A stretch of DNA of 64,000 nt, from contig CAYNGH010000001.1 in NCBI GenBank assembly GCA_964396845.1, positions 11,936 through 75,935 on the forward strand. The letters are read 5' to 3'. Each line of letters starts with the position of its first letter. Position 1 is the first letter of the stretch. The position numbers were made by a program, and so were the translations under genes. The notes below the pieces were generated by a model. It worked only from the letters and a program-made list of their open reading frames with translations, ran no database searches and was not told the DNA's origin. This DNA comes from an uncultured bacterium (GTDB lineage Bacteria; Vulcanimicrobiota; JAJTBE01; CAYNGH01). Positions 7,496 to 58,615 of the stretch are shown piece after piece.

Positions 7496-8176
7496 TTGAT
7501 GAAAAGAATCGTCACAATGATTTGTATTATTATTCTGGCCATGACAGCATTGGCATCAAGGGCAGAAGCTCAGACGGAATCAGGCAAATCCCTGATGGAT
7601 GCCATTGAGGCTATTTCCCAGACCAGGGTTTTTATCGAATTTTATTTTATGGAGGCGGGGGATTATCCCGAAAGCCTGGAGCAACTGGAGGCGGATTTAA
7701 ACTCCCTGCTTCCCCGGAACATGGAAAATGTAAAGATTCCCAAGGATCCGGCCACGGGATCTCCCTTTGTTTATAAAATGGCCCCGGATCGCAAGTCCTA
7801 CAGCCTCAAGGCGCCGGATCCTTCCCGTTACGGGGTCCCCCGACTGGAGTTTGTTCAGGTCCCTTGGGGTGGTTTTGCAGAGATTGCCGAAGAGCGCAAA
7901 CAACGTTTTCTCCAGATGATTTCCATTGAAAACATCAAGGCCATCGCCACAGCCATCGAGTATTACGCCAAGGATCACGCCGGAAATTTCCCGGCAGAGC
8001 TCAAGGATCTGATCCCCAAATACTTGAATACCATGCCCGTTTGTCCTGTTACCGGTGATTTTTATAAATACCAGCAGGACAAGGACAAGAACTACACCAT
8101 CGGCGCGCCGAAGCCATCGGTTTACGGTCTGTCGGAAATGTTCTTCTCATCTCAGCGGGGTTGGGTTACGAAGTGA
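7496..8176 (+). CDS. secreted protein with a tandem internal repeat of a pseudopilin-like (type II secretion GspG-like) module
   Basis: Signal peptide MMKRIVTMICIIILAMTALASRAEA. Two copies of the pattern E[FY]Y..[AD].G[DN][YF]P[EA].L..L...P...P.TG..[FY][VK]YK...Y.[LI].AP.PS.YG occupy residues ~45-120 and ~150-215. Confidence 0.5.
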   Translation: MMKRIVTMICIIILAMTALASRAEAQTESGKSLMDAIEAISQTRVFIEFYFMEAGDYPESLEQLEADLNSLLPRNMENVKIPKDPATGSPFVYKMAPDRKSYSLKAPDPSRYGVPRLEFVQVPWGGFAEIAEERKQRFLQMISIENIKAIATAIEYYAKDHAGNFPAELKDLIPKYLNTMPVCPVTGDFYKYQQDKDKNYTIGAPKPSVYGLSEMFFSSQRGWVTK

Positions 8177-10442
8177 ACCGGTAGCCTTCTGCCAGCAGGG
8201 GTATCAGGGATGCTCCCATGAAAGCCCCCAGCAGGTATGATACCGGGCCAGTTCCCATCAGGGGAACCAGAAATGCTCCCAGAACAAGTGCTCCCAGACA
8301 TCCTCCCAGGTGATCTGCTCCCCAGACCAGAGATACCGCCGGGGAAGATGATTCTGTTCCACGATGCATCCGGGAGATTAACTCCACACACAGGGGGGCC
8401 ACAAGCCCCGACAGGATCCCCGCGGTAATCATGGCTCCATACAGAAGAACCACCCATCCACGGCCCTTTCCTCCCAGGAGGTCAATCAGGGGAGATATGC
8501 CCAGGCACAGGATCCCCAGAAACAGTGCAGGTATTGCCACCATCCACCAGGGATGAGATTTCCTTTTTATGATATGTCCCGCTCCAAGGCCTCCGGCAAA
8601 TATCCCCAGCATATAAAGGCCCACCACAAAACCTATTCGTTCATACAGGTAACCATAAAGATTCTGGTATGAATACAACAGGAGAAGAGAAACCCCCATC
8701 CCGCAGAATCCCGATGCAAACACCATCCCCGGCGGGGATAAGGGTGTTCTTTTGACAGGAAGTGCCATCACTGCAACAGACAGCCCCAGGACAAAAACAG
8801 CAATAACCCAGTAGATGAAGGCGAATCCGCCTTTTTCCAACTTGTTGATAATCGGTGAGAGTCGGGAATCCGAGGATCCATCCCACAGTTTCAACCCCTG
8901 GAGGTAAGCCACTGGTTCAAGGTCCCGGTTGAATTTTGCCTCCCGGAGATCTCCCAGGCTTTCCTGGAAGAACCGGAGCCGATCCCCTTCGTAGAAGGTT
9001 TCAAAAAGATACGGAGTAAAGGTTGTTTCTTTGATTTCCCTTGCCTGAAAGCGATGAAAGAGAACTTGCGGATCCTCGGTGGGAGAGGCGGGATCTGTTG
9101 ATGCAAATATAAAGGCGGGATGCCCGGGGCTGGTAATCAGAACGGGAAAAACCTCCCTCAGGGTCTTGAATATGGTTCGATTGTATTCAAGAAGGGTTTC
9201 CGACAGATAGTATTCCGACGAGGCCACTGACAGGGCCAGCACTCCACCGGGGGCCAGAACCCTGCGGACATGGCGGAAGAACTCCAGAGTGTAATAACGG
9301 TTTGTCAGGGCGCTGGTGGGGTCCGGCATAGCCACGAATACCATATCCCACGGCCCTGGTGATTCTACAAGGAACAGGCGGGGATCCCCGTGAAGAACCG
9401 TAACCCGGGGATCCTGTATAATCTTTTTTTCTTCAGGGGTCATATATGGGTCAATCAGCTTGTCCAGAGCTGGATCCATGTGTATTACCGTCATTTTTTC
9501 CACCGGATGCTTCAAGACTTCCCCGATGAAACCCGGTGTCACCTGTCCCAGAACAAGTACCTGCCGGGGAGCCGGCGACTGGGTAAGAATATGGTGAGCC
9601 TTGGCAGCATCGCCGTAAGGATCCGGGAAAGCATAGCCGAATACACCGTTGAAGTAAACAGGATACTGTCCTTCCTGCTCTCCTATGGCGAGATTCTGAT
9701 ATGGGGAGTCAGCCTGGGCCAGGAGAGGAATTCCCTTCACAAGGGTTTTCCAGCGGGCATTGCGGGAAGCCTCTTCCACACCGGGAGCCATGGCCACAAG
9801 AACAAACACCGATAGAACCAGGCCCATGCTCAGGGCATCAGGTATGCCTTTTGTCCATCGGTGAAGACGGGCCCACATGACCCCCAGAGCCATGGAGGCA
9901 AAGATTATCACCCCGCAGTGAAATACCGGCAGAATCCTCACCAGGAGAAAGCTGAACAGGAGTCCCCCGCCCAGAGAACCTGCAGCTTCCATGGCATAAA
10001 GAAGTGGAAACTCGCCGACACCGTTTCTGATCCGGCATCCCAGGGGAAAGGTGAACCCCGAGGCCATACCCGGCAGAAGTAACAAACCTAAGCTTAAAAG
10101 AGCCATCTTGTGAAAAGGAATCAGCAGGCCGTAATCCACTCCGGTAAACTGACGGCTGATGCGGATCACCGGTATGAGCACAAGGGGAGCTGCAGCCACC
10201 GTCAGGGCCGAGATGCAGAAAACCCTGTGGGGTTCTCTGATGCGGCCTGAAATCAGGGAGTAAACCAATGCCCCCAGAGCAATGGACAGAAGCCATGAAA
10301 AGAGAAGATAGCCCAGCACCAGTTCATTGCCGTAAAATATTACGGTAAACTCCCGGAAAAGTATGGACTGGGTTATGGTGGATCCAGCCCCCAGCAGAAA
10401 AAAAAACAAGGGGAGGATCATCCCGATTCGATTCCTGTGCAA
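8166..10442 (-). CDS. membrane-embedded spermidine-synthase-like (polyamine aminopropyltransferase family) fusion protein, 758 aa
   Basis: About 7 N-terminal TM helices, then a central SpeE-like domain (LVLGQVTPGFIGEVLKHP...VIHMDPAL...VAMPDPTSALTNRYYTLEFF...LAPGGVLAL), then C-terminal TM helices. Confidence 0.7.
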   Translation of the reverse strand: MHRNRIGMILPLFFFLLGAGSTITQSILFREFTVIFYGNELVLGYLLFSWLLSIALGALVYSLISGRIREPHRVFCISALTVAAAPLVLIPVIRISRQFTGVDYGLLIPFHKMALLSLGLLLLPGMASGFTFPLGCRIRNGVGEFPLLYAMEAAGSLGGGLLFSFLLVRILPVFHCGVIIFASMALGVMWARLHRWTKGIPDALSMGLVLSVFVLVAMAPGVEEASRNARWKTLVKGIPLLAQADSPYQNLAIGEQEGQYPVYFNGVFGYAFPDPYGDAAKAHHILTQSPAPRQVLVLGQVTPGFIGEVLKHPVEKMTVIHMDPALDKLIDPYMTPEEKKIIQDPRVTVLHGDPRLFLVESPGPWDMVFVAMPDPTSALTNRYYTLEFFRHVRRVLAPGGVLALSVASSEYYLSETLLEYNRTIFKTLREVFPVLITSPGHPAFIFASTDPASPTEDPQVLFHRFQAREIKETTFTPYLFETFYEGDRLRFFQESLGDLREAKFNRDLEPVAYLQGLKLWDGSSDSRLSPIINKLEKGGFAFIYWVIAVFVLGLSVAVMALPVKRTPLSPPGMVFASGFCGMGVSLLLLYSYQNLYGYLYERIGFVVGLYMLGIFAGGLGAGHIIKRKSHPWWMVAIPALFLGILCLGISPLIDLLGGKGRGWVVLLYGAMITAGILSGLVAPLCVELISRMHRGTESSSPAVSLVWGADHLGGCLGALVLGAFLVPLMGTGPVSYLLGAFMGASLIPLLAEGYRFTS

Positions 10443-11365: not shown

Positions 11366-14359
11366 TCAATCCCTTTCGCCCTGCGGTGGCTGTTTGTTTT
11401 CCCTCAAGAGTTCCCAGAACCGCAGGGTCCCATCGTCGGAGGATGATACCAGCCACTTTCCTTCGGGGTGGAAGGCCAACCCGGTTATTTCGCTGGAATG
11501 CCCCCGGAGTACGTCGATATAATCGCCGGTTTTCGGGTTCCACAGGCTGATATTCCGGTCAAAGGAGCCTGAGGCCAAAATACTCCCGTCGGGAGAAAAC
11601 CTCACCGAGGTAACCCGCCATTTGTATGCCAGAATCTTGGTTTTCCGGGCCAGGGATGGGATGCTCAGAACCTCTATGACACAGGACCCCGCCCCAGATG
11701 AAAGAAACTCACCACATGGGGAAAAATCCAGCACAATCCCGAAGGCCCGGTATTGAACCAGAGAAGAGATTCGAGATCTTTTTTCAATATCCCACAGGAA
11801 TATCCTGTCATCATCATCCCCGGTGGCCAGGTATCGCCCCTTGGGATCCGTTGCAATTCCAGTTATCCGGCCCCGGTGATCCTTGATAGTCCAGTGGATT
11901 TCTGGTGTTTCTGTGTTCCAGGTTAACACTTTTCCCGTTGAATAGCCCGCAGTCACAAGGTTCCTCCCGGGGATGACCTCCAGACCTGTCACAGATCCGG
12001 CTTTCCCCTCCAGCACCTTGGCGCAACGGCCATTTTCTGCATCCCATATTCTCAAGGTTTCATCAGCAGACCCGGTAATCAGCCTCTTGTTGTTCAGGAA
12101 AGCCCCGGCGGTCACTTCGTCCCGGTGACCCTCCAAAGGTTCAAACCACTGGAGGTCTGTTGTTTTCATGACATATACCCTGCCGTCATCACTCCCAGTG
12201 GCCACAAGATTTCCATCGGGAGAAACTGCTACCCACAGGGGCGCGCCGGTGGGGATTTTTATTATCGGGCCGACCTTGTGAAAGCTTCCCTGGCCAGGGG
12301 GCAGGGTGCAGTCATGGGGCGGTTCTTTGCGGGCTTTCTGCAGGCATTGGGGAAAATCCCACAGCCGGGCGCACAAATCCCCGGAAACAGTTATCAGCTG
12401 ATTCCCCCTGGGAGAAAATCTCAGGCGGTTCACATTGAATATGTGCCATTCCAGGTATCCCACCTGCCAGTCATTCTGTATATCATAGACCCGCACCAGC
12501 CGATCCTGGGTGGATGCGGTCAGGTACCTGCCATCCTTTGAAAAGGCCAGCCCCGTCACCGCCAGAGGGACTGGAATGCGCCGGATTAAAGTCCCGTCGC
12601 CGGCCCTCCAGATGCCGATGAAAGCCTCGTCGCCTCCCCCGGCGATGATATCCCCATCGGGTGAAATCGCCACAGCCCGGATTCTCAGGGAGGATGCGTT
12701 TATTGTCTTGAGGATATTTCCTTTTTGATAATTTAGCACTATCACTTCGCCCATGTTGGTGCCTGAGGCCAGAAGATTGCCAGGCCCTGCCTTCAGGCCA
12801 GTGGGGTAAGAGTCCTGAAGCCTGATCCTGTTTTTCAGGCTCCCGATATTTGGATCCAGAATAAATATCTCGCCCCCGCTGGATGCCACTGCCACAAGGC
12901 TTCCTTCTTTTACCGGCTCCAAGGCATTCACCTCGATTCCATCGCCTCCGGGAAGAGAGAATGTCCTTTTCAGGGAACCTTGGGCAGGGTCCCACATTCT
13001 AAGGGTGCCATCCATGCCCCCGGTTACAACTATATTCCCGGCAAATACCGATGAAACCACCTGTCCCCGATGACCCTTCAGAATATGCAAAAGACGGCCA
13101 TCATTCACCTGCCACAACCGGGCAGTGCCGTCATCAGAGGCAGTCACCGCAAGACTGCCGTCGGGAGAGATGCTCCCGTCATTCAGAGCGCGACGGTGGC
13201 CTTCTAGAGCATTGTCATAATCCCGGAAAAACATATTCCCCCGGGCTATGGTCTGAGAGATTATATCCCGGGATCTGATGGGAACAACTCCTGACGGGAT
13301 GGGCTTCCTAACGATGGGTTCCCCCGGGGGGGATTCGTGGGGATCCGAGATGTTGAAAAAGTGTATGGATCCGTCCCGCATCCCCAAAAGCATCAATCCC
13401 CTGGCATGGTCAACAGCTGACGACTCAATGAATTCTTTTGTCTGGTAGGAATAAAGCTTGTCCCCTTCCGGCACTTTGTGAAAGAATGATTCTTTTTTAT
13501 TGCCGATGATCCCCAGGGTTCGATTTCCGGTAAAAACCACCTGCAATGCCTGACCCCATGGCCCCGGAGGAATCACCCCGGCAGGTATGGCCCTGTCCCC
13601 GGAGGTGTCCCACATAAATACCCCGCCTTCTTCACAGCCCGCCACCAGCAGGTGGGAATCAGGAGAAAAGGCCACCTGCCAGGCTTGATCCTGATGCTGG
13701 GTGAGAACTTCTATCCGCCCAAATGATTCTGCATCCCAGAGGCTGATGGTGTCATCATAACATCCCGCTGCCAGAAACCGGCCGTCGGGAGAAAAGGCGA
13801 TGGAATGAATGGCGTATATATGGCCCCGGAGGATCTGGATGGGTTTCATTTCCCGGTAATCCCAGAGCCGGATGAAATCATCCCCCCCGCCGGAAGCCAG
13901 AATCTTCCCGTCGGGGGAGAAGGCCACTGAGAACACCTCAAACAGGGATCCTTCCAGAACTCCCAGCAGACTGCCGGTTTTTGCATCCCATATCCTCACG
14001 GTGGTATCCTCGCCCCCCGAGGCCAGAATCTTCCCGTCGGGGGAGAAAGCCACCGACAGCACCGCCCCCCGGTGTCCCTGCAGGGTAAGAAGAACCTCGC
14101 CTTCAGTGTTACCGATGATGATATTCCCGTTTCGATGTCCGCCGGCAAAGAGTTTTCCCCCGGGAGATATGGCAAGGGTTGTCACCGCTGTCCTTTGAGG
14201 ATTGATACTTACGGGAGGCCGGGTTTCCAGGCGAAAAGAATCCCTGGGGGTTGGCCCTGTTTGGCGGAAACCGGGACAGCCTGACATAAACAGGAGGAAA
14301 AGAGCAATACCGGCAGTCAGGATAATGATGGGGACTGTCCTTTTGACTGGATGTTTCAA
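11366..14359 (-). CDS. WD40-repeat lipoprotein (997 aa, >14 WD repeats)
   Basis: Lipoprotein-like N-terminus ...LFLLFMSGC. Recurrent WD40 signatures such as LASGGEDTTVRIWD, LASGGGDDFIRLWD, VATGSDDGRVYV, LVSSSDDGTLRFWE. Confidence 0.85.
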   Translation of the reverse strand: MKHPVKRTVPIIILTAGIALFLLFMSGCPGFRQTGPTPRDSFRLETRPPVSINPQRTAVTTLAISPGGKLFAGGHRNGNIIIGNTEGEVLLTLQGHRGAVLSVAFSPDGKILASGGEDTTVRIWDAKTGSLLGVLEGSLFEVFSVAFSPDGKILASGGGDDFIRLWDYREMKPIQILRGHIYAIHSIAFSPDGRFLAAGCYDDTISLWDAESFGRIEVLTQHQDQAWQVAFSPDSHLLVAGCEEGGVFMWDTSGDRAIPAGVIPPGPWGQALQVVFTGNRTLGIIGNKKESFFHKVPEGDKLYSYQTKEFIESSAVDHARGLMLLGMRDGSIHFFNISDPHESPPGEPIVRKPIPSGVVPIRSRDIISQTIARGNMFFRDYDNALEGHRRALNDGSISPDGSLAVTASDDGTARLWQVNDGRLLHILKGHRGQVVSSVFAGNIVVTGGMDGTLRMWDPAQGSLKRTFSLPGGDGIEVNALEPVKEGSLVAVASSGGEIFILDPNIGSLKNRIRLQDSYPTGLKAGPGNLLASGTNMGEVIVLNYQKGNILKTINASSLRIRAVAISPDGDIIAGGGDEAFIGIWRAGDGTLIRRIPVPLAVTGLAFSKDGRYLTASTQDRLVRVYDIQNDWQVGYLEWHIFNVNRLRFSPRGNQLITVSGDLCARLWDFPQCLQKARKEPPHDCTLPPGQGSFHKVGPIIKIPTGAPLWVAVSPDGNLVATGSDDGRVYVMKTTDLQWFEPLEGHRDEVTAGAFLNNKRLITGSADETLRIWDAENGRCAKVLEGKAGSVTGLEVIPGRNLVTAGYSTGKVLTWNTETPEIHWTIKDHRGRITGIATDPKGRYLATGDDDDRIFLWDIEKRSRISSLVQYRAFGIVLDFSPCGEFLSSGAGSCVIEVLSIPSLARKTKILAYKWRVTSVRFSPDGSILASGSFDRNISLWNPKTGDYIDVLRGHSSEITGLAFHPEGKWLVSSSDDGTLRFWELLRENKQPPQGERD

Positions 14360-15224: not shown

Positions 15225-17012
15225 TTAACGGTAGAACACTAACTGATACATGTCCCCCAGTTTTTTGAATATGGGAATGAACACCTGACGGATAATCTCA
15301 TCCGGGGTTCTCTCGTCATTTCTCTCCCTTTTGAATTCTTCCGCCATCTGAGCCACCGTCAGTTTTCCCGAGGACAGCTCGTATGTCAGGATCTCCTCGG
15401 GCTGGGAAAGAACTGCATCCACAGTAGTCCGGGGAAGGATCAGGGATGTCCCGTCGGAAGAATACTCCCTGGGTTCATGCACCCGCTGGGCATACCACCG
15501 GGAAAGGCCTTCAAGGGGGATTTCACTGAACATCCGGTAACGGGGAGATTCAAGATAACGAAAGAATGCCGTCAGGGCTTCTCTCTTGCTCAGGAAGTGA
15601 AGATACCAGAGGCTGGACAGTCCATAATGCCAGGCCCATTGGAAATGAATCCCCAGCATGTCGATGGGGATTTTTGGGACAAGGCTCTCCATGACCGACT
15701 CCACCCGCCCGAAGAATCGCCGTTGCAGGTCCCGAATGCCGTTAATGCTGAAGGTTTCCGTGGTCATGTGGACATCAGACAAAGTCAGTCCCTTGACAAA
15801 GCGGTCGTCCACCACATTCAGGCCATATCTGCCGGGATCTTTGGCAATGGCGGTGCCGGGATAAGGCCCCATGTAAAAGGCGTTCACCTCGACGCATCCC
15901 GGCGCAGCGGACAGAAGCTCTTCTGCCAGATCCTCGGTGGCCCGGTATGTTTCCTCGTCCTCAAATGGGCCTCCCAGGATGAAGTTCCCGATGAGGCACA
16001 TTCCCCGGGTTTTCCATACCTGCTCAACAACCCGGCGGGTCATGTCATGGTTTATCTGTTTGCCGTATATGTCCAGGATCTTCTGGTGTCCTGATTCAAG
16101 CCCCACCTGAAGCCGGGCCAGCCCGGCTCCTGCCAGGGCGGGAATCATTTCCGGGTGCCTGTCCATAATGTCAACCCTGCCCTGACAGAAGAAAATAAAG
16201 TCCCGGTTGAAATCTCGGCGGTAATCCACCAGCTCCCGGGCAATCTGCTGGACTCTTTTGGGGTTGGAAATAAAGGTGTCGTCGATTATATCAAAGGCCC
16301 GGTATGGATGGGACTCCAGGTTGGATATGATCTCTTCAGTCACCTTGTGTGGACTCCGGTGACGGTATTTGAGGCCGTGGACTCCCTGAAAGCAGAAAAG
16401 GCAGTTATAGGGACAGCCCCGCCCCGACACCACGTGGAATATCTTCTGAATCCCCGCCAGGGAATGATCCGGAAAGGGGAGGATATCCAGATCCTTTATG
16501 GGTTCTGCCGGGGGGTTTGTGATTATTTTGTCGCCCTTCCGGTATATCAGGCCGGGAATTTGGGAGTAATCCCCCTTTTTGTTTATCCTGCAATCCGCCA
16601 GGCCCATGATGGCTTCTTCCCCTTCTCCCACCACGCAGGCATCAATGGCGGGATCTTCCAGCATGCCGGCTCCCAGACTGGTGGCCAGAGGCCCCCCCAC
16701 CACTGTCAGGATTCCTGGGGCCCAGTGCTTGATTTCCCCTGCCATGTGGCAAACCTGCCGGTGATTGTCGGACACGGTATAAAAGCCGGCAATGGCTGGA
16801 CGATCCATCAGAAAAACCTTTCGAATCTCATGATGTGTCATATGGTAGAGCTGATGAATTCCCAGGCATTTCACCCGGTAACCCCCATCCCGGAGAACTG
16901 TGGCCATGGACAGCAGACCCATGTTGTAATAACTGTATTCAATGTTGAATGCGGAATCCAGGTGGAGAAGAATCACCTGGGGCCGTTGGTTGATTCTGTT
17001 GAATTTATTCAA
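15225..17012 (-). CDS. B12-binding radical SAM protein (595 aa) with ~200-aa C-terminal extension (DUF4070-like)
   Basis: N-terminal cobalamin-binding fold (GGPLATSLG...VVGEGEEA), radical-SAM Cys triad GRGCPYNCLFCFQGVHG, long C-terminal helical region. Confidence 0.85.
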   Translation of the reverse strand: MNKFNRINQRPQVILLHLDSAFNIEYSYYNMGLLSMATVLRDGGYRVKCLGIHQLYHMTHHEIRKVFLMDRPAIAGFYTVSDNHRQVCHMAGEIKHWAPGILTVVGGPLATSLGAGMLEDPAIDACVVGEGEEAIMGLADCRINKKGDYSQIPGLIYRKGDKIITNPPAEPIKDLDILPFPDHSLAGIQKIFHVVSGRGCPYNCLFCFQGVHGLKYRHRSPHKVTEEIISNLESHPYRAFDIIDDTFISNPKRVQQIARELVDYRRDFNRDFIFFCQGRVDIMDRHPEMIPALAGAGLARLQVGLESGHQKILDIYGKQINHDMTRRVVEQVWKTRGMCLIGNFILGGPFEDEETYRATEDLAEELLSAAPGCVEVNAFYMGPYPGTAIAKDPGRYGLNVVDDRFVKGLTLSDVHMTTETFSINGIRDLQRRFFGRVESVMESLVPKIPIDMLGIHFQWAWHYGLSSLWYLHFLSKREALTAFFRYLESPRYRMFSEIPLEGLSRWYAQRVHEPREYSSDGTSLILPRTTVDAVLSQPEEILTYELSSGKLTVAQMAEEFKRERNDERTPDEIIRQVFIPIFKKLGDMYQLVFYR

Positions 17013-17023
17013 AGGATCCCCCT

Positions 17024-18847
17024 TTACATTTTGAAGAAAAGTACCTGATATGTCCTGTCCAGTTTCCGGAGGGCGGGGATGAAATACTTTTTTATCACCG
17101 TATCCCTGTCAAGGTCGGTGCCGGTGCGAAGGATGAACTGATCCACCATCTCCCCGACAGTAATTTTTCCCGATGAAAGCTCGTATATCAGTTTTTCATG
17201 TTCCTTCCTCAGGTGGTATCTGGCCACGGTGGGGGGGAGAATAATCTTACTGCCGTCGGAGGAGTAATAGCGGACTTCCTGAACCCGCATCACAGTGTAG
17301 TCCATCAGGTCATCGGGATGGATTCCATCGAAGATTTCAAAGCGATCGCTGGTGAGATACTTGAAATAGTTGGAAAGATCCCGCCGGGTTGCCAGAAACA
17401 CCGAATGCCACAGGCTTCCCGCACCGTAATTCCAACTCCAGTGATAATGGGTCGCCAGCATTAACCGGGGGATTTTCTTTAAACTTCTCCGCATGTGATC
17501 AGTGACTTCGCCATAGAATTTTATCCGGAGCCTGCGAAGAGTGTTAACATCCAGATGTTCCGTGGTCATGTGGACATCCGATGCGGAAAGCCCCGTGACA
17601 AAAGTCCCTTCGATGGGGGTCAGGCCGTATCTTTCGGGACTTTTCTCGATGGGAGTGCCGGGATATGGACACAGGAACCCTGCGTTTATCTCTACCACTC
17701 CCGGCGCCAGGGATATGAGCTCCTTGGCCAGATCTATGCTTGCCTGAACGGTTTCTTCGCTTTCGCCGGGCCCCCCCAGGATGATATTCCCCACCAGGGT
17801 CATTCCTCCGGTGTCCGCCACTAATTTTGTCACTTTCTTTATCTGATCGATGGTAATCTTCTTCCTGTAAGCCTTGAGCATGTCCGGATCCCCCGATTCG
17901 ATGCCTATTTGCAGCCGGGCAAGACCCGCCTCGTTGAGGGCGGGGATCATCTCCGGATGCCGGGAAATCTGATCCACCCGGCCCTGGCAGAAGAAAAGAA
18001 AGTCCCGGCCCGATTCCTCCCGATATTTTTTCAGCCTCTTGGCAAATTCCATGACCCGGCGGTGATCCGACACGAAGGTGTCATCGATTATGTCAAAGTA
18101 ACGGCTGTTGTATTTCTCGATGTTGTGGACTATCTCATCCATCAGGTTATCAACGCTTCTGAGGCGGAACTTGAGGCCGTGGACTCCCTGAAAACAAAAG
18201 ATGCAGTTGTGGGGACATCCCCGGCCCGACACCAGGTGAAAGAAATCTTGAGCCCCTGCCAGATCGTAATCGGGGAAGGGCAAACTGTCCAGATCCCCGA
18301 TGGGTGGAGCCGGGGGATTCTGTCGGACTCTGCCTCCCTCCCGCCATATCAGGCCGGGAATATCACTCAGGGCGCCGGTGGATTCTTTTTTCCAGCGCAT
18401 CAGGGCCAGCATGGCTTCCTCCCCTTCTCCCACCACCGCCATGTCAAAATCCCCGCAGTCCATTATCTCCGTTCCCAGACTGGTGGCCAGGGGGCCTCCC
18501 ACGATGATTATGGTCCCGGGACTCCACCGGCGGACCTGCCGGGCCAGACGGCTTACCTGTTCAATGTTATCGGAGATGGTATAAAACCCGGCAAAGACTG
18601 GTTTTGACAGGCTGAATGTTCTTCGCATATCTCCGGTGGATATCTCAAAAAGCTGATAACCCCCAAGACACCGAACATTATAGCCTTCCCGATCCAGGAG
18701 GGTCGCCATGTAAAGAAGCCCCATATTAAAATATTGATTCTTTAGGTTGTAAAAAGTGGTGGGGTTCATAAAAACCACGTCCAGAGGCGGGTTTGATTTT
18801 TTCAAGCTCTTTACCCGGTCGCCGATTTTCATCAATTCCTCCAACAT
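17024..18847 (-). CDS. B12-binding radical SAM protein (607 aa), paralog of the adjacent gene
   Basis: Same architecture and shared blocks (GGPLATSLG, VVGEGEEAM, GRGCPHNCIFCFQGVHGLKFR, FFCQGRVD). By eye it is ~45-50% identical to 15225..17012. Confidence 0.85.
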   Translation of the reverse strand: MLEELMKIGDRVKSLKKSNPPLDVVFMNPTTFYNLKNQYFNMGLLYMATLLDREGYNVRCLGGYQLFEISTGDMRRTFSLSKPVFAGFYTISDNIEQVSRLARQVRRWSPGTIIIVGGPLATSLGTEIMDCGDFDMAVVGEGEEAMLALMRWKKESTGALSDIPGLIWREGGRVRQNPPAPPIGDLDSLPFPDYDLAGAQDFFHLVSGRGCPHNCIFCFQGVHGLKFRLRSVDNLMDEIVHNIEKYNSRYFDIIDDTFVSDHRRVMEFAKRLKKYREESGRDFLFFCQGRVDQISRHPEMIPALNEAGLARLQIGIESGDPDMLKAYRKKITIDQIKKVTKLVADTGGMTLVGNIILGGPGESEETVQASIDLAKELISLAPGVVEINAGFLCPYPGTPIEKSPERYGLTPIEGTFVTGLSASDVHMTTEHLDVNTLRRLRIKFYGEVTDHMRRSLKKIPRLMLATHYHWSWNYGAGSLWHSVFLATRRDLSNYFKYLTSDRFEIFDGIHPDDLMDYTVMRVQEVRYYSSDGSKIILPPTVARYHLRKEHEKLIYELSSGKITVGEMVDQFILRTGTDLDRDTVIKKYFIPALRKLDRTYQVLFFKM

Positions 18848-22350: not shown

Positions 22351-22377
22351 CGGTGGAACCTTGTAAAGGTTCCACCG
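22351..22377 (-). terminator. perfect 12-bp hairpin (cggtggaacctt gta aaggttccaccg) downstream of the peroxiredoxin gene; putative intrinsic terminator
   Basis: Perfect inverted repeat in an AT-rich intergenic region 35-60 nt past the stop codon. The 3' tail on the minus strand is only moderately U-rich. Confidence 0.45.
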
Positions 22378-22410: not shown

Positions 22411-23181
22411 TTAATGATCCTTCTGGGGATCCCATTCCTTCCAGACCTTTCCTGCCAGGTCCGGCCTGGGCTTGAGGGTTTTCTTTCCCGGCTCCCAGCC
22501 TGCGGGCAAAACTTCTCCGGTTTTCCGTACATGCTGGAAAGCTTTGACCTGTCGGATGGTTTCTTCGATCTTGCGTCCAACGGAGGGTGTGAGAATTTCC
22601 ATGGCCTGAATTACCCCGTCGGGATCGATGATGAACCGCCCCCGGACATTAACCCCTGCCTGATCATCATAGACTCCGTAAACTCGGCCGATTTTCCCCC
22701 CTGCATCACTGAGCATGGGGTATGGAACTCCGCCGGGGATCATCTTCGACAATTCGGTTTCCTGCCATATCTTGTGAGCAAACCGGCTGTCGGTACTCAT
22801 TGACAGGACCTGAACATTGAGCTTGTCAAGTTCATTCATCTTGACGGCAACTGCCGTCAATTCCGTTGGTCAGACAAAGGTGAAGTCACCGGGATAGAAG
22901 CATAAAAGAACCCACTTTCCCCGGAAATCCGAGAGTTTCAGGTTTTTGAAACCTCCCTGGTGATATGCTCCTGCTTCGAAATCCGGAGCAACCTGGCCAA
23001 TCCGGGCAACATTCTGTGTTACAGGGGCAGGATTGCTCCCTGCAGGGGTGTTCTGCTGGCTGTTAACCACCGGCCCCTTTGCACTGCTGACGCAACCGGA
23101 GTTATCGGCCCCGGCTGGCATTATCATCAATGCAATAAAAATTACCCCAATCAGAAGAGTCAGCTTCACTGGTATCTTCAC
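22411..23181 (-). CDS. selenocysteine-containing peroxiredoxin (AhpC/TSA family, periplasmic); in-frame UGA (+ strand 22870..22872) at the peroxidatic-Cys position
   Basis: The ORF track splits this into 22870..23181 and 22411..22860. They are in the same frame and separated only by one TGA. The junction reads [19 protein letters not shown] against the canonical Prx motif FYPLDFTFVCPTE. There is a signal peptide at the N-terminus, and the RBS AGGAGG lies upstream of 23181. Confidence 0.8.
22841..22860 (-). promoter_or_regulatory. putative bacterial SECIS hairpin 9 nt downstream of the UGA codon
   Basis: mRNA reads UGA CCAACGGAA UUGACGGC AGUU GCCGUCAA. That is a perfect 8-bp stem with a 4-nt loop, correctly spaced for SelB-dependent recoding. 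Confidence 0.55.
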
Positions 23182-23366
23182 GTATCATTCACCTCCTTTC
23201 GTTATAATTTTCACATATTAATTCCCCCTGCACCGGGATAACCCTTCACTGCATCTTGAAAGGCTGTCCCGGCGATCCCGGGAGAAGGAGAATATCAAAG
23301 CCGGGAGAAGGTTTGGGGAAATTTTAATAATCTGCCCATTTTGGGCCGGCAGAAAGGCAGTAATTC

Positions 23367-34908: not shown

Positions 34909-35322
34909 ATGGCAAAACTTCTGATGCATCGTAAACCCAAGGTTCTTGTTGTAGATGGGGACAGGGATTTTCTGGAGCTTTTTGACTCTCTTTTTTACCG
35001 CTGGTTTCTTCTTACCCCGGTTGACTGTTATATTGTGGCCCTGGAGAAACTTCAAAGAGGGGTTTTTGATGTGGCGGTGGCGGATCTGGCAAGCCACAGC
35101 ACCCCTCCGGGGCAGGAGTTCCTGCAGGGAACCCGGGATCACCGGGAGGGGATTCCTGTTTTGTTTACCGCCAACATCACCAGCACCAGCCGGGTAAACC
35201 TGTGCCGGAGGGCCGGCGGGATTCGGCTTCTGGAGAAGAATTTTTCCTGCCGGGAAAAGGTGATAAAGACTGCCGGTTATATTATGGATGCGTCCCTGGA
35301 GAATCCTGCTGACGAGTCCTGA
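34909..35322 (+). CDS. single-domain response-regulator receiver (CheY-like) protein
   Basis: KVLVVDGDRDFLELF...FDVAVADL...GIPVLFTA is receiver-domain-like. The 3' end overlaps the convergent 35282..38614 gene by ~40 nt. Confidence 0.55.
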   Translation: MAKLLMHRKPKVLVVDGDRDFLELFDSLFYRWFLLTPVDCYIVALEKLQRGVFDVAVADLASHSTPPGQEFLQGTRDHREGIPVLFTANITSTSRVNLCRRAGGIRLLEKNFSCREKVIKTAGYIMDASLENPADES

Positions 35323-38300
35323 CTGCGCCGATTCTCGCATCCACATTATCGGAATCCTTTGTCAGAACATACTCATATACCGACATTGCTTCGTGGGGTT
35401 TGTCCAGTTTTTCCAGTATATTGCCCATTTTCAGAGGGATTCTCAGGTCTTCCGGGTTAATTCGGATGGCCTGACCATAGGCTTTTACCGCATCGTCGAG
35501 AAGATTCTTCTTCTGGTATAAATCTCCCATGTAAGATTGGGCAATAAAGTTGTCGGGCTGGGCTTCGAGGATCCGGCGGAAAACTTCGCCGGCCTTATCC
35601 AGTTGGCCGGTTTCCATGTATATCCGCCCCAGATAAAGGTGATATGGAATCACCTGGGGGCCCTGGGCCAGCAGTTCCATGGCATGGGGCAGGGCAGTTT
35701 CATACTGTTCATCCATCAAGAGCAGGATCACCAGCTGGTGAAGCAGTGCCCGGTTGCCGGGAAAGGTTTTCATGGCATTCCGGCAGTAGTCAATCCCCGC
35801 GGTTACAGCACCGGTGGATTTGTAGATATTTATAGCTTCAAGATAAGGCACCAGGCTTTCGGGAGATGCCCTGTTTGCATCCTTGAGTATTGACAGGGCT
35901 CTCAGACGGTTTTCATTGTGCAGTTCCATCCGGGCATACTTGATATATGTCTGGGGATCCTCCGGGTTGAGGCGAATGGAATGGCGGAAGGCTTTGCGGG
36001 CCTGATCCCAGAGTTCAAGCCGGGTATGCACCGAGGCCATGTCCCGGAAAAGCTCTCCATCGGTTTTTATTTCAGGATTCAGGTTGGTTACCCAGTCCAG
36101 TTGAGAAACTTCATCGGCATAGCGGGCCACTTCTCGAATTACCAACATTCTGTCAATGTCGCCATAAATATTTTTAGGAGCGTCAAACTCCAGAAGAGGC
36201 CGGTCATCGCTGTTTATACGGCCATCGCCGGCGAAGGCCCGAACTCTTTTTGCGCTGGTGATGTAGTTGCCCAGAAGTTTCCGGGGATTTTCGCAGTCGA
36301 TAAGCTCAAGGTATCTTTGAATGTTTTGATTCCTCTCCACCACTGATAAAAGTCTTTCATAATCAAGACGGATGGGTTGCCGGGATCCAATCAGCATCAG
36401 ATCTCCCCTCTGGGTAATCCACAAGTCGCCATGTGGGAAAACCGAATAAAAGGTGTTCATCACCATCTTCACCGTGGCGGGATCCATGCCGTAGGTGTGG
36501 ATCCACTGGCAGTAGATGCCGTCCTCCTTGAGTTTATCCAGACAAACCTTGTAAAAGTCGATGGAAAACAGATTTCCTATCCCGGCAATCCATGGGTTTG
36601 AGGGTTCGGATATTATAATGTCATATTTTTCCCCCGCTGCCAGAATAAAATTCCGCCCGTCGGCAATATGGCTGTGAAACCGGGGATCCTCAGTCACGCC
36701 TAAGTTTCCTTCATGGAAATACCTGGCCGCTTCCATAACCACCGGCTCAATTTCGATGCTGTCGATCCTCTCCACTTCGTCAAACTGGCTTACCGCAGCA
36801 TCGGTGATGCCACTGCCGAAACCGATGATGCATACTCTCCGGGGATTGGGATGAAGAACTGCAGGGATGAAGCCCTGAAGCCACTGGGTGTGAAGATCGC
36901 CGGTTCCTTCAGGGCTGAAGGATGCATCGGTCTTTCCGTTGACTTTCAGGGATACCATATCCCCGGATTTAACAATGGTAACGGTGCTGGAAATGCCATC
37001 CCGGTAAAAAACGATGTTCTTTGCTTCTCTATCCAGCAATCGGTTGAACTGCCGGATACTGCTCACCTGATCGTAAAACTGCGCATAAACAGAAACCCCC
37101 AGGGACATGGCGGATTTTCGCCAGACCTGGGAAAACATCAGAACCATTGCCAGCACTCCGATGAGGGCAAAGCGGAAGTATCCGGAGATTTTCTCGCTCT
37201 GTTCTTTTTTAAACAGATAAATATAAATCAGCAAAGCTCCCAGCATATTTATTCCCGTGGCAAGTTTCAGGGAGTTTTCCACCCCGATGATGGGGATCAG
37301 CAGAAATCCCGCCATAAAAGAACCGGTGATGTTGCCTGCGGTGTTGGATGCATAAACCACGCCGATTTTTGCACCTAAATTTTTCAAATTCCGGGTATAT
37401 ATCTTCACCACCAGGGGAAAGGTCAGCCCGAACATTATGGTGGGAGGTAGCATCACCAGGAAACTGATAATGAAATTCCCCGCCACCACGAGAAAATACG
37501 AACCTTTTAGAATCGGAAACAACCGCAGGAATAAATATGGAAGAAATCCCAGGGCTGGCAGGATCAGCAGGCTCATGATTCCGATGGTCAGCTCCACATT
37601 GGCCAGGGATTTGATGGTGATTTTCTCCTGGTTGAACAGACGGGTGTTGGAAAAAATATAACTCCCCAGGGCAATGCCGAATAAAAATGTGACAAGAATG
37701 GTGGAAAAAGAATAAACCGATGAACCGATGGAAAGGGCCAGGGCACGGCTCCATCCCACTTCGTAAACCATGGAGGTGAACCCGGACATGAAGAAAACCA
37801 GCAGAATCAAGCGGTGTTTGTTTTTCTCGTCAATATTGGATTCTATCTCCGGTTCACTGGCCGGCTCCGGATCCAGGGGGGATTCTTCAACACTGTCAAC
37901 ATTGCTGTCAGGTTCTTCGCCTCCCGCCATCATGCGGTCCGCCATTATAGTAACAAGACCGATAACCACATTAATCAAGCCTGCCGTCACCAGGGTGACC
38001 TGCAGTCCCAGGGCGGGAAACAGGATGAATCCTGCCAGAAAAGAACCGATGACTGCGCCGAAGGTGTTGATGGAATAAAGCCGGGCGGTTTTTGCCATAA
38101 GCTCGCCATAAGTCCTGATTACAAACTTGAGCACAATGGGCAGGGTGGCTCCCATGGCCATGGTGGGCAGAATAAAAATCATCACCGAGAGAATAAAAGT
38201 GATGATACTCATAGGGTAAAGAGAAAGGGAAAAGGCTCCCATGAGGCGGGTATAAATCATCCCCACCACATCAATAAGAAAAGGAGTGAAAAAGGCATAA

Positions 38301-38614
38301 ATGCCGATGCCCAGAGAGAGTAAACCGTAAAGACGCATATGGGGCGAGAAGGACCCGGCAGTCAGGGCCAGCAGGATCCCCGGCTTTTTGTCATCGGTCA
38401 GGTCCAGTTGGTCTGCTGTCTTGCCGGCAAGGTAGCTTCCCAGGGCAAGCCCCCCCATGAATGCTGCCAGAATACTGCTGATGGCAAAAACAGTATGGCC
38501 GAATATGATGGAAAGCCTCCGGCTCCATAAAATCTGGTATATCAGACCTGTCATCCCGGAAAGAAGAAAGAATACATGAAGCAGGGACAACAGAAACCGT
38601 CTTTTTCCCGACAT
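35282..38614 (-). CDS. 1110-aa fusion: MFS-like polytopic membrane domain + spermidine-synthase-like domain + C-terminal TPR repeats
   Basis: >12 TM helices at the N-terminus. SpeE-like core VCIIGFGSGITDAAVSQFDEVERIDSIEIEPVVMEAARYF...IISEPSNPWIAGIGNLFSIDFY. C-terminal TPR helices. It is a paralog of 8166..10442. Confidence 0.7.
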   Translation of the reverse strand: MSGKRRFLLSLLHVFFLLSGMTGLIYQILWSRRLSIIFGHTVFAISSILAAFMGGLALGSYLAGKTADQLDLTDDKKPGILLALTAGSFSPHMRLYGLLSLGIGIYAFFTPFLIDVVGMIYTRLMGAFSLSLYPMSIITFILSVMIFILPTMAMGATLPIVLKFVIRTYGELMAKTARLYSINTFGAVIGSFLAGFILFPALGLQVTLVTAGLINVVIGLVTIMADRMMAGGEEPDSNVDSVEESPLDPEPASEPEIESNIDEKNKHRLILLVFFMSGFTSMVYEVGWSRALALSIGSSVYSFSTILVTFLFGIALGSYIFSNTRLFNQEKITIKSLANVELTIGIMSLLILPALGFLPYLFLRLFPILKGSYFLVVAGNFIISFLVMLPPTIMFGLTFPLVVKIYTRNLKNLGAKIGVVYASNTAGNITGSFMAGFLLIPIIGVENSLKLATGINMLGALLIYIYLFKKEQSEKISGYFRFALIGVLAMVLMFSQVWRKSAMSLGVSVYAQFYDQVSSIRQFNRLLDREAKNIVFYRDGISSTVTIVKSGDMVSLKVNGKTDASFSPEGTGDLHTQWLQGFIPAVLHPNPRRVCIIGFGSGITDAAVSQFDEVERIDSIEIEPVVMEAARYFHEGNLGVTEDPRFHSHIADGRNFILAAGEKYDIIISEPSNPWIAGIGNLFSIDFYKVCLDKLKEDGIYCQWIHTYGMDPATVKMVMNTFYSVFPHGDLWITQRGDLMLIGSRQPIRLDYERLLSVVERNQNIQRYLELIDCENPRKLLGNYITSAKRVRAFAGDGRINSDDRPLLEFDAPKNIYGDIDRMLVIREVARYADEVSQLDWVTNLNPEIKTDGELFRDMASVHTRLELWDQARKAFRHSIRLNPEDPQTYIKYARMELHNENRLRALSILKDANRASPESLVPYLEAINIYKSTGAVTAGIDYCRNAMKTFPGNRALLHQLVILLLMDEQYETALPHAMELLAQGPQVIPYHLYLGRIYMETGQLDKAGEVFRRILEAQPDNFIAQSYMGDLYQKKNLLDDAVKAYGQAIRINPEDLRIPLKMGNILEKLDKPHEAMSVYEYVLTKDSDNVDARIGAVRTRQQDSPGTHP

Positions 38615-38881: not shown

Positions 38882-40990
38882 TCAGGTTATGGAGAACAGG
38901 TATCCTTCGGTGGTTCCGATATAGATATCTCCGCTGGGGGCGATGGCTGGCGATGTTTCCACGGGTGCATTCAGGTTGAACCACCATCTTGATTTCCCGT
39001 AGGGGTGCAGTGCAAACAGGAAGCCTTTCTGAGTGGCGAAGTAAACCCCGCCATCGTCGGAAACTCCCACTGCTGTTGAGATTACATCGGAGGCATCGAA
39101 CCGCCATTTTTCCATTCCCTGGCTGTCCAGAGCATATAATTTGCTGTCGCTGGAGCCGAAGTATATGGTGCCTTCCCGGGAAATGGCTGGTGAGGAACGG
39201 ATCCATCCATTGGTGCGGAATTTCCATTGAAGTCCTCCGCTGTTGTCCAGGGCGTAGAGATGGTTGTCTTCACAGCCCAGATAAACAAAGCCTTCTTCAT
39301 CGCTGACAGGGGCCGAGGTGATCATCCCCGGCAGTTTTGCGCTCCAGTGCATATCTCCGTCGAGGCTCACAGAGCGAAGGATGCCCGGGATTATTCCGAT
39401 GAATATATTATCGGTTCTCCCTGCGGTAGGAGAAGCCACAACAGGCCCTTCCGCCTGGGCCATCCACAGGATATCCCCGTTGGGGTCGAAGCATTTGACT
39501 CCGCCGTCGATATCTGCCACATAAAGCCGGTTTCTGTGGAGCAGAATAGCTGCCTTGACAGGATTTTCCACCTGTCGCAACCATCGTCGGCTTCCATCAG
39601 GGCCAAGGGAATGGATGCCTCCTTTTTCATCAGCAAGGTAAAAGTTTCCCTGGTTATCCATGGCGGGAGTGGAGGAAACAATCCCCGATGCCCGGTATGA
39701 CCACTGGATTTTTCCCCGTTTGCTGTAACAGCAGAATTCATTTGCGCAACCGAAGTAAAGGTTTTCATTTTCATCGATAATCACCGATGAGGTAACTCCG
39801 GCTCCCACCTTCCGGGACCATTTCAGGCGTCCCTGCAGGCTGGCGGAAACCGGAGAATGACCGGTTCTGTATGGGTTTCCTTTGAACTGACGCCATCCTT
39901 TTTTAATCTCCTGGGGTGCTTCGGGAATATGGGATGGTTGCGAACCCGGCCCTTCCAGAAGTTCGCCATAGGGGGCCAGAATGCTGGTTCTCCGCCGTCG
40001 GAGCTGTTCCAGGTGATCCTGTATGGAATCAATCTGCCGGTTGAGATCGCTCAGCAGATCCCTGGCGCTGATTAGCCGTTCCAGGGCGTTTTTCATGTTT
40101 GTGATTCCAGGATAGCGTTGATCCGGGTTCAGGTGCAGTGCCCTGTTGACAATCGCTTCCAGCTCCGGGGGGAAGTCCGGGTTGAACTCCCGGATGGGTG
40201 GGAAATCGAAGGGTGCTTCCAGCTGGGGATCTCTGCCGGTAAGGAGATGATGAAGGGTTGCTCCCAGAGAGTAAACATCAGAGCGGGGTTCCGCATGTCC
40301 CCGATATTGTTCCGGGGGTGAATAACCCTGGGTTCCCACCATGGTTCCCCGGATTTTGGGGGCAAAGAACCGGGCAATTCCGAAATCCACCAGCCGGATA
40401 CTTCCCCGGGGTGTCACCATTATATTGGATGGTTTCATGTCCCGGTAAATTACCGGAGGATTGTGGGAGTGGAGATAATTGAGGACATCACAGATTTCCA
40501 ACGCCCATTGCAGGGCCATTTCCAGAGGCAGGGTCTTCCCGGTTTCCTGCAGACGGGTAAGCATCCTTCGCAGGTCGATCCCTTCCACCAGATCCATGAC
40601 AATGTAGGATCTCTGGTTTTCCCAGAAGTGCCGGTGAACTCTGGGGATGGCCCGGTGTCGCAGGGTCGCCAGAAGATCAACCTCCCGGCGGAAAAACTCC
40701 ATGGCAGCCCTTCGGGCATCAGAGGTGGTGAACCGGTCAATCATTTCTTTGATGGCCACATCCTGCCCGGTGGGATTATCATGGGCGCGATAGACATACC
40801 CCATCCCCCCGGCGCTCAGAAGACTTCTGATTACATAACGATCCTGCAGAACGGCTCCCTTGGGGAGGGTTCCCGTTGCCAGGAACACTCCGTCATCGGC
40901 TGTGGGGGCGGGGTTTATGAACTTGCCACAGCCAAGGCAGTATCGGGCTGTCTGGCGGTTTTCCATATTGCAGTATGGGCATGCGACCAT
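38882..40990 (-). CDS. Ser/Thr protein kinase with N-terminal zinc ribbon and C-terminal PQQ-like beta-propeller repeats
   Basis: CPYCNMEN...YCLGCG zinc ribbon. Kinase motifs GGMGYVYRA, AIKE, VIYRDMKPSNIMV, DFGIAR, SPPE. C-terminal repeats ...LYALD..G...W.F.... Confidence 0.85.
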   Translation of the reverse strand: MVACPYCNMENRQTARYCLGCGKFINPAPTADDGVFLATGTLPKGAVLQDRYVIRSLLSAGGMGYVYRAHDNPTGQDVAIKEMIDRFTTSDARRAAMEFFRREVDLLATLRHRAIPRVHRHFWENQRSYIVMDLVEGIDLRRMLTRLQETGKTLPLEMALQWALEICDVLNYLHSHNPPVIYRDMKPSNIMVTPRGSIRLVDFGIARFFAPKIRGTMVGTQGYSPPEQYRGHAEPRSDVYSLGATLHHLLTGRDPQLEAPFDFPPIREFNPDFPPELEAIVNRALHLNPDQRYPGITNMKNALERLISARDLLSDLNRQIDSIQDHLEQLRRRRTSILAPYGELLEGPGSQPSHIPEAPQEIKKGWRQFKGNPYRTGHSPVSASLQGRLKWSRKVGAGVTSSVIIDENENLYFGCANEFCCYSKRGKIQWSYRASGIVSSTPAMDNQGNFYLADEKGGIHSLGPDGSRRWLRQVENPVKAAILLHRNRLYVADIDGGVKCFDPNGDILWMAQAEGPVVASPTAGRTDNIFIGIIPGILRSVSLDGDMHWSAKLPGMITSAPVSDEEGFVYLGCEDNHLYALDNSGGLQWKFRTNGWIRSSPAISREGTIYFGSSDSKLYALDSQGMEKWRFDASDVISTAVGVSDDGGVYFATQKGFLFALHPYGKSRWWFNLNAPVETSPAIAPSGDIYIGTTEGYLFSIT

Positions 40991-57919: not shown

Positions 57920-58615
57920 TTATTCTTTTACTTCCTGGTGGGTCATCATCATTTGCTTCCGGAACATAAAATACTGCAGGAAATAATCCAGAATCCCCGT
58001 GACAAAAATTAAGATCATCATATGGTAAAACAGGCTCATGGCTGTTCTGCCATAAAGACTGGTGATGTCATGGGCTTTCATTCGGGGGACTCCCTGGATA
58101 GCCGGCAGATTCTTTGAGAGGAAGTTTTGAAATACAATAATAATCAGCAAGGTTCTGAGAATCACCTTGAATGTTTCCAGAAGGCTTTTCTGGGAGAAGA
58201 GTTTTTTTGCTCCCTCCACAGGGTTAATTTTTTCCAGTTTTGGTTTTATCGCTTCCCCTGAAGCCAGAAGACCTGTCTGGAAGACATGGCCGGCGACTCC
58301 CACCACAGAAACCACTCCGAATACCTGTATCAGGATTATCATGGGCTTCTGCCAAGCGTTGAGAATATCTCCCATGTAGTTTGCCACGGTTATGTCCCTG
58401 GCCCCCAGTCCCATGAGCCGGCCTTTGAGCCATTCCAGCATGGTTGTCATCATCCCTGATCCGGCAATGGAAAAGAGTATGAAAACCCCGACAAAAACCA
58501 CGGCCCCTGCCAGGTCGTTGGACTTGGCCACCTGTCCTTTTTTTCTGGCTTCCATCAATCGATGGGGAGTCGGTTGTTCGGTTTTCTCGTCGGCCAAGGA
58601 ATCACCGCCTTTCAA
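57920..58615 (-). CDS. flhB: FlhB N-terminal (membrane) portion, ending at an in-frame TAA
   Basis: MKGGDSLADEKTEQPTPHRLMEARKKGQVAKS... with 4 TM helices. It ends ...MMMTHQEVKE-TAA, where canonical FlhB continues ...EVKDEHK... Confidence 0.8.
   Translation of the reverse strand: MKGGDSLADEKTEQPTPHRLMEARKKGQVAKSNDLAGAVVFVGVFILFSIAGSGMMTTMLEWLKGRLMGLGARDITVANYMGDILNAWQKPMIILIQVFGVVSVVGVAGHVFQTGLLASGEAIKPKLEKINPVEGAKKLFSQKSLLETFKVILRTLLIIIVFQNFLSKNLPAIQGVPRMKAHDITSLYGRTAMSLFYHMMILIFVTGILDYFLQYFMFRKQMMMTHQEVKE

Follow-up and report, generated by a model that had tools for sequence, protein, structure and literature searches.

A PrxU-family selenocysteine peroxiredoxin gene, split in two by open reading frame calling and probably encoding an exported protein, in a 64-kb bacterial sequence

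The selenocysteine (Sec) peroxiredoxin PrxU was purified from Eubacterium (Peptoclostridium) acidaminophilum by Sohling et al. in 2001, and this work, as it is cited in passages of the reviews PMC13188914 and PMC9312934, forms the experimental basis of the selenoprotein family entered there as 'Peroxiredoxin (Prx), TxxU'. Here I describe a gene of this type, prxU, on the minus strand of a 64-kb stretch of bacterial DNA (the window, by which the whole analysed stretch is meant) that probably belongs to a member of the Vulcanimicrobiota/Eremiobacterota. In the list of open reading frames (ORFs) the gene appears as two separate entries, which an earlier note on this DNA had taken for one Sec-peroxiredoxin gene interrupted by a UGA codon. 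I hold with high confidence that the two ORFs are indeed one gene, encoding a selenocysteine peroxiredoxin of the PrxU family that is made via UGA decoding directed by a selenocysteine insertion sequence (SECIS) and is probably exported. As the family has been described since 2001, counts in reviews as one of the verified selenoproteins of bacteria and is represented by a curated NCBI model, a further member is an ordinary find and no surprise to the specialist. The earlier note called such proteins known but rare; the first part stands, whereas the second does not, as the selenoproteome lists of many anaerobes include Sec-peroxiredoxin (PMC1794560).

Read along the minus strand from 23181 to 22411, the sequence consists of 256 codons in one frame, in which the sole internal stop is the TGA at codon 104. 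The ORF list divides this frame into an upstream part of 103 residues (22870..23181) and a downstream part of 149 residues (22411..22860), and the latter is listed from an internal TTG, although the frame is open from the first base 3' of the TGA. The junction around the UGA reads FTFV-U-PTE, so that coordinates and junction are as the earlier note gave them. Past the TGA, 152 codons are open, and the gene matches its homologs equally well on the two sides of the UGA (68% identity before it, 69% after it), as would be expected only if translation runs through the UGA. The same DNA, including the TGA, is present in a metagenome contig in ENA (L001, 100% identity over 4894 bp), where the same two fragments have been called. 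However, L001 perhaps comes from the same data set, and it is therefore no proof of independent resequencing.

For the matches to family models and solved structures, Cys was substituted at codon 104. The NCBIfam model NF040737 (peroxi_PrxU) matches the product with 372.5 bits against a cutoff of 270, aligning residues 28-253 to positions 2-232 of its 233 positions. The AhpC equivalog scores 193.6 bits against a cutoff of 272, and every other peroxiredoxin model likewise stays under its own cutoff. In Pfam both AhpC-TSA (1e-35) and 1-cysPrx_C match. Among solved structures, 2-Cys peroxiredoxins match with E values of about 1e-51 to 1e-48 (with one value given as 6e-51), for example hookworm AcePrx-1 and human PRDX2, and position 104 aligns with the peroxidatic Cys of DFTFVCPTE (PDB 4fh8, 5ijt), the residue on which the UGA had been said to fall. 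With one frame of 256 codons, one in-frame TGA and a score above the cutoff of the curated PrxU model, the proposal of a single gene mis-split by ORF calling holds.

Compared with PrxU of E. acidaminophilum, the window gene falls in the same curated hidden Markov model family, and alike are the Sec (predicted, in the window gene) at the peroxidatic position TxxU, the absence of a C-terminal resolving Cys, the Cys-containing N-terminal extension within the model and the SECIS hairpin directly downstream of the UGA. It differs by what looks like a cleavable signal peptide, a feature missing from most family members, and in its origin, which is probably Vulcanimicrobiota/Eremiobacterota and not Clostridia. 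Other bacterial selenoproteins with the AhpC/TSA fold, namely the Prx-like thiol:disulfide oxidoreductases (UxxC/UxxU) and Prx-SUH (NF045827), are more distant, as these have Sec in a thioredoxin-like UxxC or CxxU and not in the peroxidatic TxxU; the Prx-SUH model scores 22 bits on the prxU product against a cutoff of 298.

Orthologous genes were collected in a metagenome scan and in a genome scan with one genome per species, which returned at least 597 relatives and of which the best 80 loci (84 gene copies) were counted. A TGA is found at the equivalent of codon 104 in 83 of the 84 genome copies (the other has TGC) and in all 79 metagenome copies, together 162 out of 163 homologous genes. 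These answer the check, called for in the earlier note, whether homologs carry Sec or Cys in the UGA column. The genome loci span the Acidobacteriota, Chloroflexota, Desulfobacterota/Syntrophia, Myxococcota, Zixibacteria, Calditrichota, Bacillota and others. Among the best 120 proteins, out of thousands of homologs, the critical column is filled differently, with W in 80, C in 37, and R and S in one each. The W entries arise because metagenome gene callers translated the TGA under genetic code 4: they sit on short contigs where the gene caller picked that code, and in the case of homolog P0078 the DNA shows TGA and the database sequence is not reproduced under table 11. The orthologs returned by the genome and metagenome scans are at most 76% identical to the window prxU, and a close sister for comparison of the signal peptide was thus not found in them.

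Two Sec-prxU genes, each with its own TGA and hairpin, occur together in some metagenome-assembled genomes (MAGs), whose labels are Calditrichota, Cytophagia and Desulfobacterales. The two genes lie about 1 kb apart in L054 (3137, 4139), L063 (166, 1165) and L078 (3276, 4151), and about 2.5 kb apart in L058 (1686, 4235). In the first three of these loci the pair is made up of a short cytoplasmic form and a form with a hydrophobic N-terminus.

Downstream of the UGA the mRNA can form a perfect 8-bp hairpin (Table 1), which is the core of the minimum-free-energy (MFE) fold of the surrounding 71 nt and on its own folds at -12.2 kcal/mol (MFE -12.2 to -13.3). Of all window positions, only 0.3% have a perfect hairpin of 8 bp or more that starts within about 25 nt downstream and is complete within about 50 nt. 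The published bacterial SECIS (bSECIS) model (PMC13188914) asks for a stem of 4-16 bp that carries a loop of 3-9 nt beginning 16-37 nt from the UGA, for an MFE of at most -7.5 kcal/mol and for a G among the first two loop positions, which is usually followed by G or U. The prxU hairpin falls within all of these ranges, with a loop of 4 nt (A-G-U-U) that starts 17 nt after the UGA, a stem of 8 bp and the energy given above.

The conservation of this hairpin was scored in a gap-free alignment of the 84 TGA gene copies (A2), for the 8-bp stem plus the pair of the first and last loop bases. Paired are 87.8% of the cells, and 7 of the 9 pairs show changes on both sides; not one of 500 column shuffles matched any of the five observed measures. 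When as a control the 3' arm was slid by 1-3 columns, pairing came to 18-77% and the covariation score fell from 0.27 to at most 0.11. Ala-Val-Ala forces GC...GC in the stem, and informative are therefore the pairs in which both bases are synonymous third codon positions. Of these, columns 21-36 show GC 68, GU 3, CG 2, UA 2 and AU 1 times. In columns 24-33 (GC 71, AU 6, GU 4, CG 1) unpaired combinations are absent, as they are in columns 27-30 (AU 52, GC 29, GU 1), which hold the first and last loop bases (22852 and 22849 in the window). Pair 22-35 covaries by way of amino-acid changes (Thr/Val, Ala/Ala, Ser/Asp). In the seven Cys-encoding homologs this constraint is relaxed: the synonymous pairs 21-36, 24-33 and 27-30 are paired in 93-100% of the Sec forms versus 57-71% of the Cys forms, the mean hairpin energy is -9.6 versus -5.9 kcal/mol, and the GU loop motif is gone from several of the seven, whereas 160 of the 162 Sec copies have an AGUU or a GGUC loop. 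Judged from this comparison of sequences, the prxU hairpin is a SECIS element under RNA-level selection tied to the TGA state. The hairpin of 8 bp that had been pointed out 9 nt past the UGA is hence confirmed, conserved with covariation, and within the published bSECIS ranges.

The perfect covariation of the first and last loop bases leaves just G-U between them, like the N1-N2 pair of the bSECIS model but tighter. In comparison with the E. coli fdhF-type SECIS and the bSECIS consensus of Zhang and Gladyshev, as far as PMC13188914 relays them, the prxU element is alike in being a hairpin directly 3' of the UGA inside the coding sequence, with a small apical loop of G followed by U (AGUU in prxU, GGUC in a third of the orthologs), a 17-nt spacing and an MFE below -7.5 kcal/mol; its first and last loop bases recall the N1-N2 pair of that description, with one base fewer in between. 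It differs in being shorter and simpler, with 8 bp, no bulged U, no long lower stem and a spacing at the low end.

The catalytic residues Pro97, Thr101 and Arg180 are invariant in the aligned homologs. In an alignment of 35 homologs (A1) two cysteines besides the peroxidatic position are conserved in at least 90% of the sequences. Cys30 lies in the consensus GCVxPAxGPI, close to residue 28 where the match to the PrxU model starts, and at the position of Cys94 the aligned solved 2-Cys peroxiredoxins have Phe (VVLFFYPLDFTFVCPTE). At the position of the resolving Cys the 35 homologs have T, L, M or A, and Cys in none of them. The cysteine pattern of PrxU (C30, C94, no C-terminal resolving Cys) is derived from this alignment and is not a published definition; the window gene fits it, with C30 and C94 present and the resolving Cys replaced by L225. 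Typical 2-Cys peroxiredoxins of the Prx1/AhpC group (human PRDX2 and PRDX4, Salmonella AhpC; PDB 5ijt, 3tjb, 4ma9) are about 50% identical to the prxU product over 180 residues and share its fold, the PxxxTxxC/U motif and the conserved Arg, while the prxU product differs in its predicted peroxidatic Sec, the Leu in place of the Cys of GEVCPAGW and the extra conserved Cys at 30 and 94. By its sequence, then, the product is not a typical 2-Cys peroxiredoxin: the motif of the peroxidatic cysteine (CP) and the fold are present, the C-terminal resolving cysteine (CR) is absent. With Leu225 at that position the classical intersubunit CP-CR disulfide is impossible, and recycling must therefore use Cys30, Cys94 or directly a thioredoxin-like reductant.

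The first 25 residues of the product look, by eye, like a signal peptide of n/h/c layout, in which a positive n-region and a hydrophobic h-region lead to an A-G-A cleavage motif followed by Asp26, and their 13-residue hydropathy (3.2) exceeds that of every other N-terminus in the comparison of loci. Signal-peptide-like N-termini are present in about 13 of the 163 Sec copies (about 8%), and most orthologs are without. Eight Sec orthologs (L008, L048, L062, L102, L111, L123, L141 and L164) combine such an N-terminus with the same downstream Cys motif, and hydrophobic N-termini occur also in the second copies in L054, L063 and L078 and in the gene in L084/L085. Cys forms show the feature as well (P0001, P0002, P0010, P0012, P0015 and P0016). 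A signal peptide together with a Cys-containing N-terminal extension is also known from PRDX4.

Table 1. Positions of the prxU gene and its features in the window
Feature	Position	Strand	Remarks
prxU coding sequence	22411..23181	minus	256 codons including the predicted Sec104; GTG start 23181..23179; TAA stop 22413..22411
UGA codon 104, predicted to be read as selenocysteine, peroxidatic residue	22870..22872	minus	
SECIS hairpin UUGACGGC-AGUU-GCCGUCAA	22841..22860	minus	perfect 8-bp stem, 4-nt loop, starts 9 nt after the UGA
Active-site loop P97-G-D-F-T101-F-V-U104-P-T-E (PxxxTxxU)	22861..22893	minus	aligned to DFTFVCPTE
Cys94 codon, in LLCFYPGD, 10 residues before Sec	22900..22902	minus	
N-terminal extension motif G-C-V-S-S-A-K-G-P, residues 29-37, with Cys30	23071..23097	minus	
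Leu225 codon at the resolving-Cys position (GEVLPAGW vs GEVCPAGW)	22507..22509	minus	from alignment to 2-Cys peroxiredoxins in the PDB
Predicted Sec-type signal peptide, residues 1-25 (MKIPVK / h-region / PAGA)	23107..23181	minus	cleavage expected after AGA; judged by inspection
Shine-Dalgarno sequence AGGAGG	23192..23197	minus	10 nt upstream of the GTG start; read from the sequence
Perfect 10-bp hairpin CGGUGGAACC-UUUACAA-GGUUCCACCG	22351..22377	minus	33 nt after the stop codon; putative terminator, weak

Several observations weigh against a decoded and exported selenoprotein. The GC...GC part of the stem is dictated by Ala-Val-Ala, and two of the seven Cys forms retain 7 of the 8 stem pairs. 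Rfam gave no SECIS match, neither in the window at the gathering threshold nor in 22780..22920 at E <= 10. In the 64-kb window ARAGORN found no tRNA-Sec, nor any other tRNA, and Pfam found no SelA, SelB or SelD domain among the approximately 43 scanned ORFs of at least 200 aa; the searched literature contained no link between the Vulcanimicrobiota/Eremiobacterota and selenocysteine. With regard to export, the signal peptide was assigned by eye only, and a gene for an envelope reductase (DsbD/CcdA, TlpA-like) is not present near prxU. Finally, the AlphaFold model of the exported Cys homolog P0001 has a confident peroxiredoxin core, but its N-terminal Cys motif has a predicted local distance difference test score (pLDDT) of about 56-60, which lends no structural support to Cys30 as the resolving residue and does not discriminate among the routes of resolution.

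The alternative that fares best in view of these points is that of a cytoplasmic PrxU, translated from an internal ATG (Met19 or Met21), in which the 'signal peptide' would be a mere upstream extension of the ORF. About 90% of the Sec orthologs are without a hydrophobic N-terminus and start some 5-8 residues before the Cys motif (M-x-E-x-K-D-G-C-V...), an arrangement that a start at Met21 would resemble, and the lack of a nearby envelope reductase gene would suit a cytoplasmic enzyme. However, a strong Shine-Dalgarno sequence stands before the GTG, and the internal ATGs (M19, M21) have none; the layout of residues 1-25 with its cleavage motif is unlikely for untranslated sequence, and a signal peptide precedes the same Cys motif in 12 or more further Sec orthologs as well as in several Cys forms. 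I therefore regard a cytoplasmic location as unlikely. The reading of the N-terminus as a signal peptide, made in the earlier note, is supported by this ribosome-binding site and by the orthologs with signal peptides. Export of the prxU product is recurrent in the family and plausible, as far as sequences can tell, and the mature protein of about 231 residues is probably exported to the cell envelope; I use the word exported here, and not periplasmic.

In the cytoplasmic long forms of PrxU a Met is found 2-4 residues before a conserved ARVGK, exactly where the short forms of about 200 aa begin, which suggests two alternative starts or frequent mis-calling of starts in the family. The exported forms, including the window gene (NVARIGQ), are mostly without a Met before the ARVGK-type motif.

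A second alternative accepts prxU as intact but supposes that it is not decoded with Sec in this organism, for instance because a host that has no Sec machinery acquired it horizontally in the recent past, so that only the 103-residue fragment would be made. The window without sel genes or tRNA-Sec, the absence from both scans of any ortholog above 76% identity and the silence of the searched literature on Sec use in the probable phylum are in line with this. Against it, the 152 codons past the TGA are as conserved as the upstream part and the hairpin keeps 8 of 8 pairs and the GU loop, features which would decay without selection. I consider an undecoded gene improbable.

It is very unlikely that codon 104 holds a nonsense mutation or a sequencing error, by which the TGC or TGT of a Cys-peroxiredoxin had turned into TGA: a single base separates TGC from TGA and the only other copy of the exact sequence (L001) may share its data source, yet orthologs from many phyla have TGA at this same codon, and the hairpin that is relaxed in Cys forms is intact in the window gene. 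That TGA could be a sense codon (Trp or Gly, under tables 4 or 25), as the many database homologs recorded with W would have it, can be dismissed, since TGA terminates 14 of the 33 Pfam-supported genes in the window and is internal in none, which makes it an ordinary stop of the standard code and excludes codes 4 and 25, and since those W entries go back to code 4 gene calls. By established peroxiredoxin chemistry, an enzyme with Trp or Gly as its peroxidatic residue would also be inactive.

For the selenocysteine peroxiredoxin encoded by prxU, the following course of events can be proposed on the basis of established bacterial Sec decoding and peroxiredoxin chemistry. As the ribosome meets the UGA at codon 104, a SelB-type factor (SelB-GTP) carrying Sec-tRNA(Sec) would bind the hairpin with its GU-containing apical loop 17 nt downstream, and Sec would, by analogy, be inserted in place of termination, giving a protein of 256 residues. 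This preprotein would be exported by means of its Sec-type signal peptide of about 25 residues and cleaved after Ala25. The selenolate of Sec104, in the PxxxTxxU pocket with Arg180, would attack H2O2 or organic hydroperoxides and become a selenenic acid, and would be regenerated by Cys30 or Cys94, or directly by a thioredoxin-fold reductant. A resolving role of the Cys30 motif is an inference here, as is the choice of resolving thiol and reductant, and dependence of the window enzyme on thioredoxin is assumed from the family name.

A more specific version of this proposal, an extracytoplasmic selenoperoxidase of the Vulcanimicrobiota/Eremiobacterota that is exported by its Sec-type signal, is resolved by Cys30 (GCVxxAKGP) and is recycled by an envelope thiol-reductase pathway, can be put forward tentatively, with rather more doubt than belief. 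A precedent for a peroxiredoxin of the envelope that is recycled by electrons crossing the membrane is PprX of Caulobacter crescentus, which is reduced via ScsB and TlpA (PMC3322552). However, PprX is Cys-based and has a genetic and biochemical link to ScsB/TlpA, whereas no such partner is encoded near the window prxU or the other exported PrxU genes. If the exported, Cys30-resolved version were true, it would define an 'exported PrxU' subtype (about 8% of the Sec orthologs) and give a role to the N-terminal Cys motif.

For annotation, the 103- and 149-aa fragments should be merged into one selenoprotein of 256 residues, which is otherwise missed or counted as two truncated AhpC-like ORFs. The presence of prxU would, to judge by its sequence, imply Sec decoding in this probable Vulcanimicrobiota/Eremiobacterota organism, and may place a selenium-based peroxidase outside the cytoplasm. 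It leaves the understanding of recoding and of peroxiredoxins unchanged; modestly new are the export signal on a Sec-peroxiredoxin and the probable host phylum. The survey of PrxU genes, with TGA in all but one of the homologs and pairs of synonymous sites that relax in the Cys forms, provides a clear case of selection acting on the RNA within a coding sequence. Two points at the level of the family can be added to what is modestly new, namely the conserved N-terminal Cys motif and the relaxed synonymous pairing in Cys forms, both of which appear uncharacterised in the searched literature.

The gene looks monocistronic. Upstream lies a divergent gene for UDP-GlcNAc 2-epimerase, and downstream are genes for a TPR protein and then a ribosome hibernation factor, all functionally unrelated to prxU. 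A scan for promoters and terminators around prxU gave nothing above chance, and a search for PerR boxes upstream found no match near the gene. The 10-bp hairpin behind the stop codon, which the terminator scan did not call as no T-run follows it, may terminate transcription. No common partner gene was found beside the exported forms of PrxU, as the neighbours differ at every locus compared (acyl-CoA dehydrogenase, trehalose synthase, a thiamine pyrophosphate enzyme, MarC, PorV, nrfHA, an encapsulated ferritin and VKOR-Trx). The exported Cys form P0010 is followed by a gene for a VKOR-thioredoxin fusion, and the exported Cys form L083 is located between a hemerythrin gene and genes for nrfH/nrfA-like cytochromes. 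The Cys form L087 adjoins a divergent gene for a FUR-family regulator.

Candidates for further selenoprotein genes in the window, taken as TGA codons with 60 or more open codons both before and after them, were rejected, being antisense to real genes or adjacent genes in the same frame. The one intergenic candidate, a TGA at 34899, was rejected too, as its translation is of low complexity, Pfam has no match before or after it and no hairpin accompanies it.

The window also carries dnaG, rpoD, flagellar and cell-envelope genes. Other genes that stand out, none of them linked to prxU, encode three B12-binding radical SAM proteins (15225..18847 and 51152..52552), two large proteins with a spermidine-synthase-like domain (8166..10442 and 35282..38614), one of which is fused to TPR repeats, a WD40 protein of 997 aa (11366..14359) and a fusion of a Ser/Thr kinase with a beta-propeller (38882..40990). 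Among named relatives, MAG proteins from the Vulcanimicrobiota (76%) and Candidatus Eremiobacteraeota (72%) come closest to the window FlhA (55386..57527). The flagellar export gene flhB (57920..58615, minus strand) is broken by an in-frame TAA at 57922..57920 (QEVKE-TAA-HKSIEGDPFVK), past which the frame is open through the NPTH autocleavage motif to a normal C-terminus; the Pfam match of the called ORF is limited to positions 1-217 of 335. This TAA looks like a change from GAA to TAA, and could reflect a pseudogene, an assembly error or a split gene.

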